Origin: Gemmatimonadota bacterium
GTDB taxonomy: Bacteria; Gemmatimonadota; Gemmatimonadetes; Longimicrobiales; RSA9
Length of the DNA stretch: 26,182 nucleotides
Reading direction: 5' to 3'
NCBI GenBank assembly: GCA_040905425.1
Contig: JBBDRO010000071.1
Coordinates: 1-26,182 of the forward strand
This document shows positions 21,284 to 26,081 of the stretch, one piece after another. Below the pieces are notes generated by a model. That model saw only the letters and a program-made list of their open reading frames with translations. It had not been told where the DNA came from and ran no database searches. Each line of letters begins with the position of its first letter. Position 1 is the stretch's first letter. The position numbers were made by a program, and so were the translations under genes.

Positions 21284-22141
21284 CTAGCGCAGCCGCGTGA
21301 GCCCCTCCTGCGCCACCGACGCCACCAGCTCGCCGCCGCGCGTGTAGATCACCCCCCGCGAGAACCCGCGCGCTCCCGACGCCGCCGGACTGTCCATCAC
21401 GTAGAGCAGCCACTCGTCCATGCGGAAGGGGCGGTGGAACCAGATGGCGTGGTCGAGCGAGGCCGCCTGCAAGCGCTCCATGTACACGCTGAGGCCGTGC
21501 GGCAGCAGCGCGGTGGAGAGGATGCCGTAGTCCGACCCGTAGGCCAGCACGGCCTGATTGGCCAGCGCTTCCGGCGGCATCTCCCCCACGGCGCGCAGCC
21601 ACATCAAGCGCCGCGGCTCCTGCGGCTCCGGCTCGAAGGGGTTGACCGGCGCCACCGGCCGGAAATCGATGGGGCGCTCCTGCGTCAGGACCGACCGCAG
21701 CGCGGGCGGGATCAGGTCGGCATGCGCCCGGATGAGGTCCAGGTCGGAGGTGAGTTCCTCGGGGGGCGGCGCGTCCGGCATCTCCAGCTGGTGGCTCGGA
21801 CCGTCCTCCACCACCTGGAAGGAGGCGGACATGTTGAAGATGGCCCGACCGTTCTGAATGGCCGTGACCCGGCGCGTGGTGAAGCTCCGCCCGTCCCGCA
21901 GGCGATCCACGAAGTAGACGATGGGCGTGGCGATCTCGCCGGGCAGGATGAAGTAGCCGTGCAGCGAATGCGCCACCCGCTCCCTGTCCACCGTGCGCTG
22001 CGCCGCCACCAGCGCCTGCGCCAGCACCTGGCCGCCGAAGACGCGTCCCGAGCCGATGTCCCGATTCGTACCGCGGTAGATGTTCTGCTCCAGCGCCTCC
22101 AGATCCAGGAGCGTCAGGAGATCCTGCACGGCGTAGCTCAC
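21284..22141 (-). CDS. tesB: acyl-CoA thioesterase II
   Basis: RVFGGQVLAQAL, HSLHGYF, LRDGRSFTTRRV, SLDHAIWFH and VASVAQEGL. The GTG start overlaps the upstream TGA (GTGA). RBS GGAGAG. Confidence 0.96.
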   Translation of the reverse strand: MSYAVQDLLTLLDLEALEQNIYRGTNRDIGSGRVFGGQVLAQALVAAQRTVDRERVAHSLHGYFILPGEIATPIVYFVDRLRDGRSFTTRRVTAIQNGRAIFNMSASFQVVEDGPSHQLEMPDAPPPEELTSDLDLIRAHADLIPPALRSVLTQERPIDFRPVAPVNPFEPEPQEPRRLMWLRAVGEMPPEALANQAVLAYGSDYGILSTALLPHGLSVYMERLQAASLDHAIWFHRPFRMDEWLLYVMDSPAASGARGFSRGVIYTRGGELVASVAQEGLTRLR

Positions 22142-23280
22142 GTCTGCTCTCCTTGCCGCATGGCTCCCAGTCGACCCGCCACCCAGAAGAGCAGCGCCGC
22201 CGTGACGAAGAGGGCGGCCACGCCACCGAGCGCCCGGCCGCGCTCCGCCCCGTAGTACCAGGCCGCCACCACGAGCGCCCCGGCCGACGTGACGAGCAGC
22301 GCGCGCGCCTCGTTGCGGAGGGCGTACACCATGCCCGCTCCGCCCAGCACGGCCACCGTGAGGGCGGCGACCTCCGGCGGCGCGTCCAGCGCCTCGAGGG
22401 TGGTCCAGAAGGCCAGCACCACACCCAGGATCATGGCCAGCACCAGGCCGTTCGTGTACCAGTCCCGGCGCAGCCGGTCCGGCGCCCGGTGGACCGCCCA
22501 CAGGATGGCCGCCGTGCTCGCCACCCACCATACGTCGAGCGGCCAGGGCGCGATGTCCTCCCCCAGGTCCAGCGGCCCCACGATCGTTGCCAGCAGCAAC
22601 GCCGCGGCCACGTACAGGGACAGTGCCACCGCGTGCAGCTCCCACTCGGCGGCACGCCCGGCGGCCAGGCGCGCCGCCAGGACGGCACCCGCCGCCAGCA
22701 GCACCCCGTCCAGAATCCAGATGCTGGTGTTCCCGTCCAGGTCAAGCGCACGGTACAGGAAGAGGAAGACGAACAGATGGCCGAGCACCACCAGCGCCAC
22801 CGGCAGCACCGGATGGCGCCGTGCCGTGAGTGGCACGCCCACGACGGGCACCAGCAGGGCCAGCACACCCACCAGCACGGCCGGCGCGCTACCGTTGGCC
22901 CAGGCGTTGGTGGAGTACACGCCAGCCACCACCAGCACGATCAGACCGGCCACCTCCGCCACGCGCGCCGGCACCCGCCAGTTCGCCGCCCGCTCCGCCG
23001 CGAGGCCGCCGGCCACCAGCGCCGCGCCCACGCCGGCCACGATCAGCGTGCGGCCGGCGTGGCCCAGCGCGGGCCAGACCCACGAGAAGAAGGTGGCCGT
23101 GGCAATGAGGAGCACCACCGCGCCCGTGGCGGCGATCAGCAGCTGCGCGGCGCGGCGACGCTCACGCGCCGCGTGGGCCACGGCGTCGGTGCGCAGGCGC
23201 TCGACCGCTTCCGGCGGCAGCAGGCCCCGCTCCTGCCAGCGGCGGAGGGCGGCTTCGACCTGGCGATGGGCACTGGGCAT
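22138..23280 (-). CDS. DUF2157-type multi-pass membrane protein
   Basis: N-terminal LRRWQERGLL followed by many hydrophobic helices. Start at ATG 23280 with GAGGA upstream. Confidence 0.75.
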   Translation of the reverse strand: MPSAHRQVEAALRRWQERGLLPPEAVERLRTDAVAHAARERRRAAQLLIAATGAVVLLIATATFFSWVWPALGHAGRTLIVAGVGAALVAGGLAAERAANWRVPARVAEVAGLIVLVVAGVYSTNAWANGSAPAVLVGVLALLVPVVGVPLTARRHPVLPVALVVLGHLFVFLFLYRALDLDGNTSIWILDGVLLAAGAVLAARLAAGRAAEWELHAVALSLYVAAALLLATIVGPLDLGEDIAPWPLDVWWVASTAAILWAVHRAPDRLRRDWYTNGLVLAMILGVVLAFWTTLEALDAPPEVAALTVAVLGGAGMVYALRNEARALLVTSAGALVVAAWYYGAERGRALGGVAALFVTAALLFWVAGRLGAMRQGEQT

Positions 23281-23544
23281 GAAGTTCCTCGGGTGCGAGG
23301 CTGTAACGGAGACCCGGGGGCCGCGGCTCCGGTGACCCGGCCGGCGGCCGTGGGCCCGTCCGACGGGCTCCCGGAGCCGAAGATAGGCCGCCCCTCCTGC
23401 CGCCGACAGCCGCCGGGTCCCCGGGAGGTACAGCCCCTGCACCACATCTCCGTTGTGACGATAGGGCCACCCCGATCGTCTGCATCATGAAGGGGCCCGG
23501 GCAGGCGCCGGGCTCATGAATCACCGTAGCACTGGAAGGTCAAC

Positions 23545-24450
23545 ATGAATCGAACATTACTCGGCGCGGCCCTGTTGGCGGCGCTCATCCCGCTGGGGGC
23601 TTGCAGTGACGTGACCGGGGAGCAGAGCGCCTCGGTGAACGTGCTGCTGACCGACGCACCCGGAGACGTGGAGGCCGCGTGGGTCACCGTCACCGAGGTC
23701 AGCCTGGTAGCCCAGGGTGGCGAGGATGACGAGGAAGGCGGCAGCATCATCCTGCTCAGCAGCGAGCCGTGGACCGGCGACCTGCTCGAGCTCCAGAATG
23801 ACGTGGAGGTCCTCGTGCAGGGCGCGGAAGTCCCCACGGGGCGCTACACGCAGCTCCGCCTGGTCATCACCGAGGGCTGCGTAGCCGTGGAGACGGAGTC
23901 CGAGGACCCCGACATCTACACGTCATCCGCGAGCTTCGATGCCTGTGGCAGCACGGCCGGCGCCGGCACGCTCCATATGCCCAGCTTTGGCCAGAGCGGT
24001 CTCAAGATCAACCTGCCCTCTGCCGACACCGATTTCGAAGGCGAGCAGACGCTGCTCCTGGACTTCGACGTCTCCGAGAGCTTCGGCCACCAGGCCGGCG
24101 CTTCCGGCATGTGGGTCATGACGCCGGTCATCAAGGCCACCAGCTTCGGAGCGGCCGCCACGGTGAATGTGGACGTGACGCTCGGCACGGGGATCGGTGC
24201 TCTGCTCACCGCCGCCGGCTTTGCCATCACGGACTTCTCCGTCAAGCTGGATGGTGAGGCTCCGGTAGCGCTGGCTGCCGACGGCTCCGCCACCCTGGAG
24301 TTCGTCACCTCCGGCAGCCACACGCTCTCGCTCGTAGGTCCGGACGGCTGGGCGCTGACCACCAGCCCCACGTCGCCGCACACCTTCACCACCACGGCGG
24401 GCGCTACGCAGACCGTGGCGCTCACGCTGACGGGCTTCACCGAGTCCTGA
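23545..24450 (+). CDS. DUF4382 domain lipoprotein
   Basis: Lipobox LGAC, VLLTDAPGD, GRYTQLRL, PSFGQSGLKI, LLLDFDVSESF and WVMTPVI. Confidence 0.9.
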   Translation: MNRTLLGAALLAALIPLGACSDVTGEQSASVNVLLTDAPGDVEAAWVTVTEVSLVAQGGEDDEEGGSIILLSSEPWTGDLLELQNDVEVLVQGAEVPTGRYTQLRLVITEGCVAVETESEDPDIYTSSASFDACGSTAGAGTLHMPSFGQSGLKINLPSADTDFEGEQTLLLDFDVSESFGHQAGASGMWVMTPVIKATSFGAAATVNVDVTLGTGIGALLTAAGFAITDFSVKLDGEAPVALAADGSATLEFVTSGSHTLSLVGPDGWALTTSPTSPHTFTTTAGATQTVALTLTGFTES

Positions 24451-24604: not shown

Positions 24605-25618
24605 TCAGAACCCTTCCTGCCGCACCTCGTGCGGCCCGCGCTCCGGGCCCAGACGAACCACGCTCCCGGGGGTGGTGCTGGCCCCGCCCACCGGCGGGGC
24701 GTCCCCCTTCTCGCGCGCCATCTCCGCCACGCTCTTCACGCCGGCCAGCGCCGCCGCCCCGGCCAGCGCCTCCCGATCCCCGTCGTACCACTCGAACCAG
24801 GGCAGTCCGCTGCGCGCATACTCCTCCACCGTCACCGGCGTGGGCGGCGGCTCCTGCCCGGTGATCGACCGCCACACCAGCGCGTTGGCCAGGTGAACGA
24901 AGCACCGGTTGCGCGCCTCCTGTTCCCAGTTCTCGATGGCCTCACGGTCACGATAGATCTCCTGGTCCATACGCCCGCCGGCCGCCAGGCCCATGGAGGC
25001 CGACGCCTCGGACACGCACAGCGCCATGTCCATTGCGAGCGGCCCACGCCGGATGGTGCGCCGGAATTCCCTGCGCCGCCGGCGCCAGACCTCGGCCTTG
25101 AGCGGGACCGCCGAAATCTGCAGCCCGCCGTGTTCGGCTTGCCCCGTGAGCTGCTCCTCCACCGTGTACTCGCTGCCCAGGGGCATGGCCACGAACTGCC
25201 GCACCTGCCCTTCCGCCACGCAGTACCCATCCAGCCACGGCTGGCCCGGCACCACCACGTAGTCCTGCGGCTCGCTGCCGAGCTCCTCCCGCCACGGCTC
25301 CCCCGTCACCGCGTTGACCTTGCCGGCGGCCACCTGCACCGCCCAGGGATACGCCTCGGGCGAGTGGAAGCTGATCCACAAAGCCTCACTCTGGTACATG
25401 GGCACCATGACGCCGCCGCGTCGCAGCCACGACTGACCCAACCGATCGGCATGATCATCCACGTGCCGCATGGGAAAGGCGCCCAACCCCGGCGGCAGCG
25501 GATAGCTCCGGTCATCATCCGGAATGCGCAGCGTGCGCTCCAGTTCCACCCTGAGCACCGCCTCGGGATGCACCTCCGGCGCGGTGAACACCAACCCGTC
25601 CTCCCTCAACTCGATCAT
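24605..25618 (-). CDS. conserved uncharacterised protein (RTLRIPDD / QPWLDG family)
   Basis: 337 aa, soluble. Motif chain RTLRIPDD-LPPGLG-PMYQSEALW-QDYVV-QPWLDG-RQFVAMPLG-TVEEQ-GGLQI-MGLAAGG-GLPWF. RBS GGGAAG. Confidence 0.85.
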   Translation of the reverse strand: MIELREDGLVFTAPEVHPEAVLRVELERTLRIPDDDRSYPLPPGLGAFPMRHVDDHADRLGQSWLRRGGVMVPMYQSEALWISFHSPEAYPWAVQVAAGKVNAVTGEPWREELGSEPQDYVVVPGQPWLDGYCVAEGQVRQFVAMPLGSEYTVEEQLTGQAEHGGLQISAVPLKAEVWRRRRREFRRTIRRGPLAMDMALCVSEASASMGLAAGGRMDQEIYRDREAIENWEQEARNRCFVHLANALVWRSITGQEPPPTPVTVEEYARSGLPWFEWYDGDREALAGAAALAGVKSVAEMAREKGDAPPVGGASTTPGSVVRLGPERGPHEVRQEGF

Positions 25619-25676
25619 GGCAGGCTTCCCTTCAGGTCATTGTATGCCGCGACGCCCGTCCCCCTCCGCGCGTCTT

Positions 25677-25715
25677 TCACCATTCTCCGTCCCTCACCAT
25701 TCTCCGTCCCTCACC
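25677..25715. repeat. 17-bp tandem duplication spanning the XRE gene stop codon
   Basis: TCACCATTCTCCGTCCC at 25677-25693 and 25694-25710, plus TCACC at 25711-25715. Confidence 0.95.
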
Positions 25716-26044
25716 TCCCGGACCACCCGCGCGACCGCCCCGTCCGGCAGATCCTTGAGCGCGCGGATGGCTTCGGCAAAGAGCCGCGGCCGCCGCCGAA
25801 TGGCGGCCTGCAGGTCACTCGACACCTTCCCGGCCAACGCCAGCAGCACATCGGCGTCCACGTCCAACTCGGCCGAGAGCCGCGTCAGGGTCTCCTCGGA
25901 CGGCGGCGAGCCGATGCCGCGCTCCACCTTGCTCAGATAGCTCGGCTCGATCCCCACACGCTCCGCCACCCGCCGCAGCGAGAAGGCGGCGTCCTCCCGG
26001 CGCAGCTCCTCGCGCCGCTCGCGAATATAGGGTCCCAGATTCAT
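25694..26044 (-). CDS. XRE-family helix-turn-helix transcriptional regulator
   Basis: LGPYIRERR...SLRRVAERVGIEPSYLSKVERG...PPSEETL. Start at ATG 26044 (MNLG) is preferred because ATG 26056 lies inside the predicted -10 box. Confidence 0.93.
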   Translation of the reverse strand: MNLGPYIRERREELRREDAAFSLRRVAERVGIEPSYLSKVERGIGSPPSEETLTRLSAELDVDADVLLALAGKVSSDLQAAIRRRPRLFAEAIRALKDLPDGAVARVVREVRDGEW

Positions 26045-26051
26045 GCCATGT

Positions 26052-26081
26052 ATCATGTACTACACACTACACATCTGTCAA
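26052..26081 (-). promoter_or_regulatory. putative leaderless promoter with tandem operator-like repeat
   Basis: Minus-strand TTGACA-N18-CATGAT, 7 nt before ATG 26044. The spacer contains TGTGTAG twice. AT-rich patch in a GC-rich background. Confidence 0.65.

Follow-up and report, generated by a model that had tools for sequence, protein, structure and literature searches.

The 26,182-base window analysed here is the whole of contig C71, in a 4.12-Mb genome (70% G+C) that, judging by its relatives, belongs to Gemmatimonadota, close to Longimicrobiales. On its minus strand, the window carries a gene for an XRE-family regulator followed by a gene for a 337-residue protein, and these two genes, which appear to form a self-contained cassette, are the subject of this work. 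According to the list of open reading frames (ORFs), the gene of the 337-residue protein (hereafter, the main protein), a member of an undescribed family, spans positions 24605..25618, stop codon included, and occurs only once in the genome. The XRE gene, at 25694..26044, encodes a 116-residue helix-turn-helix (HTH) protein of the HTH_3 family, and a 75-nt spacer (25619..25693) separates the two. A preliminary description of the window had proposed that an XRE gene is followed, 75 nt downstream on the same strand, by a gene for a soluble protein; both ORFs agree with this, and no part of the main protein is membrane-like, its 19-residue hydropathy peaking at 1.21. The longest XRE ORF (25694-26056) would encode 120 residues; nevertheless, the start is most likely the ATG at 26044, because the four preceding codons fall inside the conserved promoter/operator described below. 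Across 79 related loci, the spacer between the two genes has a median length of 31 nt (quartiles, 19-57). At 25679-25712, two tandem copies of a 17-nt unit, GAGGGACGGAGAATGGT, are present. The unit codes for the last part of the XRE tail and extends into the stop codon; the second copy, just beyond the stop codon, helps to explain why the spacer of the window is longer than the median. The RNA fold of the spacer was not notable (z -1.88), and no terminator-like site was found.

Upstream of the XRE gene, we identified a sigma-70-like promoter at 26052..26081 on the minus strand, composed of TTGACA (26081-26076), an 18-nt spacer and CATGAT (26057-26052). This is the only promoter-like site between positions 24300 and 26182, against 0.1 expected by chance. 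A 26-bp near-palindromic operator candidate, GTGTAGTGTGTAGTACATGATACATG, located at 26047..26072 on the same strand, overlaps the promoter spacer and the -10 element. When the XRE upstream regions of 75 related loci and of the window were considered together, the sequence GTGTACTNNGTAGTA was matched with at most 3 mismatches in 13 positions in 69 of the 76, giving the 26-bp near-palindromic consensus GTGTAcT-r-T-g-TAGTA-y-A-y-A-s-TAcAc. In most related loci the motif is preceded by TTGACA, and in 47 of the 69 the start codon lies 25-28 nt after the start of the motif. Only 8 nt separate the end of the window's promoter from the ATG at 26044, which makes a leaderless mRNA probable; in six loci, an AGGAGG leader is found instead of this arrangement. 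The exact 17-mer of the operator occurs once in the 4.12-Mb genome, and sites with two mismatches number 3, versus 3 for a control pattern. The conserved operator over the promoter lends support to the proposal of the preliminary description that the module is self-regulated, which we infer from the position and conservation of the motif. In the plasmid locus of Euzebya pacifica (L086:2520-2625), TTGACA is followed by a different repeat, TGTTCAGTGAACAGTGAAC, seen by eye, which suggests that the operator may change with the repressor clade.

The smaller protein is an XRE-type regulator, as had been supposed. It matches Pfam HTH_3 (PF01381) with an E-value of 6.9e-10 and a score of 39.3 bits over residues 19-71, above the cut-off of 23. 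Its structural model is all-helical, with eight helices and a predicted local distance difference test (pLDDT) score of 93.9, and its HTH matches the folds of SinR, CapH, DdrO, ClgR, ImmR, P22 C2, HigA and GraA. The nearest solved relative is SinR (profile E 2.9e-7; Foldseek E 2.1e-4 to the SinR/SinI complex 1b0n), and PADLOC returned only generic HTH matches, such as a weak one to capH (2.6e-7).

To define the gene context, one genome per species was scanned and, out of 424 relatives of the main protein, the best 80 loci were kept (50-59% identity, closest clade). In 79 of these 80 loci, the gene immediately upstream, in the same orientation, is a homologue of the XRE gene (E 1e-34 to 1e-56, 55-77% identity), and the expected recurrence of XRE linkage was therefore borne out. 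The two genes are recurrently adjacent and co-oriented, as are those of type II toxin-antitoxin systems. Conservation across phyla is 50-62% for the main protein and 55-77% for the repressor, and an alignment of 42 XRE sequences shows a mean column identity of 70% over the whole length. Besides the XRE gene, no neighbour recurs in more than 6 of the 80 loci; clusters that seemed to recur in 38, 35 and 23 loci proved to be the main gene read in other frames and were rejected. The only locus without XRE, L048, carries in its place a PafB/PafC-like pair, with HTH-WYL-WCX present twice (L048:1909-4004), that ends at the start of the main gene. In one natural fusion, P0121, found on five contigs, a 12-residue link separates an XRE domain (1-123, ending in REVRDGEW) from the main domain, and the protein additionally has a region resembling the DNA glycosylase OGG. 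Other long homologues of the XRE protein, mostly fusions to unrelated neighbouring genes, were discarded as apparent gene-calling artefacts. Among more distant relatives, the cultured Euzebya pacifica keeps the pair (48% identity) on a 572-kb plasmid, and the Miltoncostaea homologue (43%) has an unrelated HTH gene downstream.

The main protein has no match in Pfam or NCBIfam at E<=0.1, none in PHROGs at E<=0.01 and, against PDB sequences, a single chance-level match (E 0.53); a profile built from a 48-row alignment of the main protein (A1) has no PDB match at E<=10. It has no matching toxin family in Pfam, NCBIfam or PADLOC, and it belongs to none of the known defence families of PADLOC-DB 2.0, a library of 2023. 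The characterised enzyme that the preliminary description had set against a new family was sought in Pfam, NCBIfam, PADLOC, PHROGs, PDB sequences and PDB folds, and none was found. The family itself is large. In a search for proteins of similar length, 7,967 of 8,000 scored candidates match the main protein at E<=1e-3, and the top non-identical ones share 61-62% identity with it; a filter-free search with one representative per 50%-identity cluster yielded 3,813 clusters at E<=1e-3, 2,338 at 1e-10 and 878 at 1e-30. In the source databases, these proteins are named 'hypothetical protein' and, occasionally, '(integral) membrane protein', a name for which we found no support. Nothing on the family was found in the open full-text literature, a body that leaves out subscription journals, nor in passages of PMC3417536 and PMC3482391. 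As far as these searches show, the family of the main protein is undescribed; the XRE half of the pair belongs to a known kind of regulator.

All nine sequence motifs quoted in the preliminary description were located in the main protein, at residues 28-35, 73-81, 118-122, 126-131, 140-148, 164-168, 209-215, 271-275 and 178-191. The blocks are conserved as had been supposed, with R31, P33, Q141, F142 and P273 present in 48 of the 48 rows of A1 and G164, G165, G214 and G215 in 46-47; the last motif, an Arg-rich stretch at residues 178-191, is unconserved, its residues being kept in 1-16 rows per position. Full-length homology together with the conserved blocks places the protein in the family recognised by RTLRIPDD...QFVAMPLG...GLPWF.

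Based on A1, AlphaFold2 produced a confident beta-strand-rich model of the main protein (pLDDT 90.3; predicted template modelling score 0.88), with pLDDT below 50 only at residues 188-205 and 332-337. The best Foldseek match of this model in the PDB has an E-value of 0.17. A VIA comparison with 48,161 chains gave a best Z-score of 4.2 (3v9f_A; root-mean-square deviation, 4.6; 111 aligned residues), with none reaching 5, and a second look gave 3.7 at best (CD4, C3 and p53 core domains). These matches, all of the Ig, MSP or p53 type, were taken to reflect a generic beta-sandwich only. The model thus predicts a beta-sandwich domain of approximately 300 residues that matches no solved fold. Among predicted viral structures, 17 are similar to the model at E<=1e-3. 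They include two Harvfovirus proteins (E 3.6e-23 and 3.4e-21, TM 0.67-0.69), a Hyperionvirus 'ubiquitin-like domain-containing protein' (9.3e-9), proteins of Pithovirus, Marseillevirus and ChoanoV1, and a RING protein of Edafosvirus. With homologues in bacteria, fungi, protists and giant viruses, the domain is indeed cross-kingdom, as the preliminary description had proposed.

The XRE protein and the main protein share a C-terminal tail, V-R-[DE]-G-x-[WF]. In the window, the XRE protein ends in REVRDGEW (25697..25720, minus strand); all 79 XRE partners end in R-E-V-R-D-G-x-W, each fixed position being kept in 78-79 of them. The main protein ends in HEVRQEGF (residues 330-337; 24608..24631, minus strand), a deviant copy of Q-V-R-E-G-x-F. 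Among the 78 complete main-protein tails, V is present in 65, R in 66, E in 65, G in 61 and F in 63, at positions -6, -5, -4, -3 and -1, respectively, and most of the remaining tails have a shortened VRE[WYF] form. The end [DE]Gx[FWY] is found in 108 of 120 close homologues, in 32 of 144 diverse representatives and in 5 of 92 long forms. Those five include kinase fusions (P0130, ...VRDGKW) and the ubiquitin/Hint-bearing P0154, P0161 and P0181. In Euzebya, both proteins carry the tail (...VADGDW and ...VTDGTW); in Miltoncostaea, the main protein does, and the tail is absent from the main proteins of Bradyrhizobium and L048, which have other partners. In the model of the main protein, the tail is of low confidence and predicted to be disordered (pLDDT 46 for the last residues). 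As far as we found, a tail common to a repressor and its operon partner is undescribed. Other branches of the family have C-terminal ends of their own. The ascomycete long forms P0168-P0170, P0178, P0191, P0198 and P0201, several of them named RING-type, end in ...[AR]F[KQTE]S[IV]...R[IVL], and trypsin-fused homologues in the range P0141-P0192 have the common end ...LIQFAGLQF....

Between the GGLQI and MGLAAGG blocks, the main protein has a variable surface loop (residues 169-208; 24995..25114, minus strand), inside which lies the Arg-rich insert (residues 178-191; 25046-25087, minus strand) and part of which (188-205) is disordered in the AlphaFold2 model. The strands that follow the disordered part (208-218 and 237-245) fall within the range of the weak fold matches (approximately 1-256), so the loop interrupts one domain and is not a linker between two. 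Ubiquitin aside, the loop measures 26-703 residues across 293 homologues, with a median of 43. Short loops are basic, Arg and Lys making up 22% of their first 24 residues versus 10% of the remaining protein, and 167 of 222 contain a dibasic site; long loops free of ubiquitin are coiled-coil-like or of low complexity. In a subgroup that includes P0217, P0218, P0234, P0243 and P0248, a different insert, helical and of about 55-95 residues, follows the first beta hairpin, and the tails are VRE[WF] plus 3-4 extra residues.

The preliminary description had also stated that fungal homologues often carry ubiquitin between these two blocks. Such proteins exist. Ubiquitin (PF00240) was found on 41 of 92 long homologues (591-2,000 residues), in which RING is frequent and Hint is present on some; named sources include Pluteus, Mycena, Botryobasidium, Favolaschia, Flagelloscypha, Phenoliferia, Athelia, Zopfochytrium and the amoeba Pelomyxa. 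In P0188 of Pluteus, the first half of the domain (196-373) is followed by ubiquitin (423-494), the second half (511-618) and RING (619-667), with ubiquitin placed after the GGLQ block, which ends at 346, and before the GFAAGG block, which starts at 511. P0148 of Pelomyxa has the same architecture. In two other proteins, ubiquitin lies outside the loop, at the N-terminus in P0129 and after the second block in P0136. By a regular-expression search, 29 of the 41 ubiquitin-bearing homologues have the canonical ...LRLRGG end, and in at least 18 of the 41, in which both flanking blocks could be located, it lies between the two blocks. In 10 proteins, LRLRGG is directly followed by Cys-Phe-x-x-(D/G)-T, the start of Hint; in the others, 4-15 residues intervene before MG(L/F/M)AAGG. 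The Arg-rich insert of the window protein therefore occupies the loop that holds ubiquitin in eukaryotic homologues, as had been claimed. The window protein is not itself a member of the ubiquitin-inserted branch, its loop being 40 residues long, Arg-rich, partly disordered and devoid of ubiquitin.

In natural ubiquitin fusions, ubiquitin is found at the N-terminus of a ribosomal protein. Like these fusions and like the autoprocessing Hint domains of the Hedgehog-intein type, the inserts keep LRLRGG (29 of 41), in 10 cases with a Cys-Phe Hint start directly after it. Unlike the natural fusions, in this family ubiquitin is placed inside a loop of another folded domain. As far as we found, in-loop ubiquitin and ubiquitin-Hint inserts are undescribed.

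Fusions to a variety of other domains occur among the 92 long homologues. Trypsin-like peptidase is present in 16, TPR in 4 and kinase in 3, in addition to Sel1, VWA, UBA and RING, and the peptidase part of P0151 matches the PADLOC model 'nacht' (4.4e-21). On plasmid pBb1S5b of Bradyrhizobium barranii (L088:2992-6759), a tail-less homologue of 294 residues (34% identity) heads a peptidase operon, in which it is followed by an M10/M12 metallopeptidase, a caspase-family (C14) peptidase and a very large trypsin-like peptidase. A Ku gene is located upstream of this homologue.

The 80 loci span at least 12 phyla, among them Gemmatimonadota, Planctomycetota, Kiritimatiellota, Lentisphaerota, Myxococcota, Thermodesulfobacteriota, Pseudomonadota, Acidobacteriota, Verrucomicrobiota and Chloroflexota. 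Within Gemmatimonadota, 34 of the 301 genomes have a match at E<=1e-10, as do 19 of the 128 genera. Among 40 relatives, a full-length copy is present in 4 (G016, an unpublished genome, G020, G021 and G038); in Planctomycetota, 8 of 301 genomes have a match, all of the same conserved type. In G033, G206, G251 and G296, the main gene is broken into adjacent fragments. In G283, the cassettes XRE-main and XRE-main-main are arranged in tandem, with three main genes within 5 kb (L098; G283:C1:2066500-2075500). In a quick tree, whose support is weak, Gemmatimonadota rows cluster, with 5 label changes versus 23 when labels were shuffled. A clade of 33 rows, with a support of 99, contains ten other phyla, within which Planctomycetota (7 changes for 7 rows), Pseudomonadota and Thermodesulfobacteriota are scattered like shuffled labels; errors of metagenome binning could add to this mixing. 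A 39%-identical copy is present in the 197-kb phage record Virus Rctr197k (L089; KX853510.1:3303-4270), annotated in split pieces as 'similar to putative membrane protein' and with a head morphogenesis gene a few genes away.

The remaining genes of the window encode an AcrB-type pump, a DEAD-box helicase, an S9 peptidase, a TPR protein, an acyl-CoA thioesterase, a DUF2157 membrane protein (22138-23445, minus strand) and a DUF4382 protein (23545-24450, plus strand; E 4.6e-27), lipoprotein-like from its N-terminal sequence. The DUF2157 and DUF4382 genes do not recur next to the cassette elsewhere.

In our best reading of these sequences, the locus would be a self-contained, horizontally mobile two-gene cassette consisting of promoter, operator, repressor and effector. 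XRE would bind the 26-bp near-palindrome over its own promoter and keep off a two-gene, mostly leaderless mRNA. The main protein would be the output, or effector, since nothing else is conserved or operator-bearing. Through the tail that they have in common, both proteins would touch each other or compete for one site. The repressor may restrain the effector in the manner of an antitoxin; alternatively, the effector may titrate the repressor, as SinI titrates SinR. Upon release, a burst of effector would lead to growth arrest or defence. We tentatively favour, at a confidence somewhat short of even, a self-repressed cassette of toxin-antitoxin-like or defence type in which the shared tail would serve to hold or sense the effector. 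Circumstantial evidence would place it among conflict-type modules and not among housekeeping functions, namely the patchiness, the decayed copies and the phylum mixing, together with the WYL swap in L048, the protease fusions, the Bradyrhizobium operon and the 'nacht' match.

The arrangement resembles that of several known systems. As in HipB-HipA, HigB-HigA and GraT-GraA, a small HTH protein and a larger partner are encoded in a short operon whose promoter is covered by an operator, and, as in type II pairs with an XRE antitoxin, the cassette is patchy and transfer-prone. Unlike type II pairs, the partner lacks a known toxin fold or family, conservation across phyla is far higher and the two proteins have a C-terminal motif in common. 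According to PMC3163267, the surface of the SinR/SinI heterodimer is formed by residues conserved between repressor and antagonist; the conserved contact residues there would have their parallel in the common tail here. Nevertheless, only the HTH half of XRE superposes well on SinR, and SinI is a helical peptide of 57 residues, whereas the partner here is a 337-residue beta-sandwich and the common segment has 6-8 residues. CapH-CapP, ImmR-ImmA and DdrO-IrrE also combine an XRE-type repressor with a second protein, which would inactivate it under stress. Unlike CapP, ImmA and IrrE, the main protein is not a COG2856/HEXXH metallopeptidase, having no Pfam hit and no conserved His. Additionally, switches of the CapH-CapP type control a separate downstream system, and none is located beside this cassette.

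Several observations weigh against a conflict cassette worked through the tail. On the side of the effector, PADLOC returned no match for the main protein at E<=0.01, and no Cys, His or Ser is found in the invariant or nearly invariant columns of A1, so no standard catalytic centre is evident. The conservation of the two proteins is unusually high for a toxin-antitoxin pair. As for mobility, no mobile-element gene was found in the window, whose surroundings are ordinary housekeeping genes; members of the family are seldom found on plasmids (6 of 72,556 records) or phages (2 of 50,697), and in IMG/VR, three pattern matches were found, none of them related, and no close relative. As for the tail, the copy on the main protein of the window, VRQEGF, departs from the consensus, some loci (e.g., L009) retain XRE while their main protein has no tail, and in the XRE model, VVREVRD is predicted to close a packed helix (105-116), leaving only G-E-W as coil.

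Part of this evidence could also be read as pointing to an accessory function that is induced by stress, perhaps in connection with DNA damage, in which XRE would be a plain dedicated repressor of the DdrO, ClgR or CapH type and the main protein would perform a conserved, non-toxic biochemical job upon induction. The very high conservation of both proteins and the operator across phyla would suit such a role, as would the similarity of the XRE HTH to those of DdrO, ClgR, CapH and ImmR, the PafB/PafC-like regulators that replace XRE in L048, the OGG-like DNA glycosylase domain of P0121 and the housekeeping context in the window. We consider this explanation unlikely, given that the gene is present in only 34 of the 301 genomes of the phylum and has decayed copies, that neither a conserved Cys, His or Ser nor an enzyme family or fold match speaks for a catalyst, and that an exact operator found only at its own operon argues against a wider regulon; the common tail would also be left unexplained.

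The tail itself admits a further explanation, to which we assign a rather low probability: it may be read by a host factor, for instance as a C-terminal degron, recognised by an ATP-dependent protease, or as a docking peptide for a conserved host protein, in which case XRE and the main protein would be co-regulated or co-targeted with no mutual contact. The same short motif does end two unrelated folds, the tail of the main protein is predicted to be disordered, as short linear motifs usually are, and the tail is retained by kinase-fused and ubiquitin/Hint-bearing homologues, which lack an XRE partner in the same protein. Nevertheless, the reader would need to be universal, as the cassette occurs in 12 phyla or more and has no further conserved neighbour, and a free carboxyl end is not required, given that 3-4 residues follow the motif in one subgroup and that it is internal in P0121. 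It is quite improbable, in turn, that the main protein acts as a non-toxic adaptor, which would bind peptides or proteins through recognition of tails or loops and deliver partners to the fused protease, kinase, TPR or RING, the two-gene form being just a signal-sensing anti-repressor of its own XRE. The diversity of the fusion partners, the weak fold likeness solely to beta-sandwich binding modules and the absence of an evident set of catalytic residues would be in keeping with an adaptor, but a sensor whose sole output is its own operon would have no effector, and the genome contains a single exact copy of the operator, with no conserved third gene.

Alongside the self-repressed cassette that we favour, the loop may have a role of its own in other branches of the family. 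Bacterial and fungal gasdermins, encoded with adjacent proteases, are protease-armed effectors. By analogy, the protease operon of Bradyrhizobium, the trypsin-like fusions and the disordered, basic and insertion-prone loop would be compatible with the loop being a possible cut site. The protease links, together with the cleavable ubiquitin and the Hint junction, would point to a cut in the loop as the arming step where the loop holds ubiquitin or Hint or where proteases accompany the protein. Unlike gasdermins, the XRE cassette of the window encodes no protease, and no gasdermin or pore-former fold was found among the Foldseek and VIA matches (best E 0.17; best Z 4.2 and 3.7), although absence from such a list does not amount to exclusion. 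That cleavage of the loop arms the protein is speculation, to which we give little credence. Similarly doubtful is the broader proposal of a new class of proteolytically armed effectors, common to bacteria, eukaryotes and giant viruses, in which a beta-sandwich would be switched by a cut in its loop. Bacterial members would be cut by fused or neighbouring proteases and eukaryotic ones by deubiquitinases or by a self-cleaving Hint after ubiquitin, and the V-R-[DE]-G-x-[WF] tail would serve as a plug, or as a handle for the repressor-antitoxin.

The family of the main protein comprises thousands of clusters and has neither a family entry nor a solved relative among the resources searched. In its bacterial form, promoter, operator, repressor and effector would together constitute a minimal, portable cassette, and the identical tail on the repressor and its partner provides a falsifiable handle on the mechanism. 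The workings of the bacterial cassette could, in turn, explain an unstudied, ubiquitin-linked family in fungi and giant viruses.

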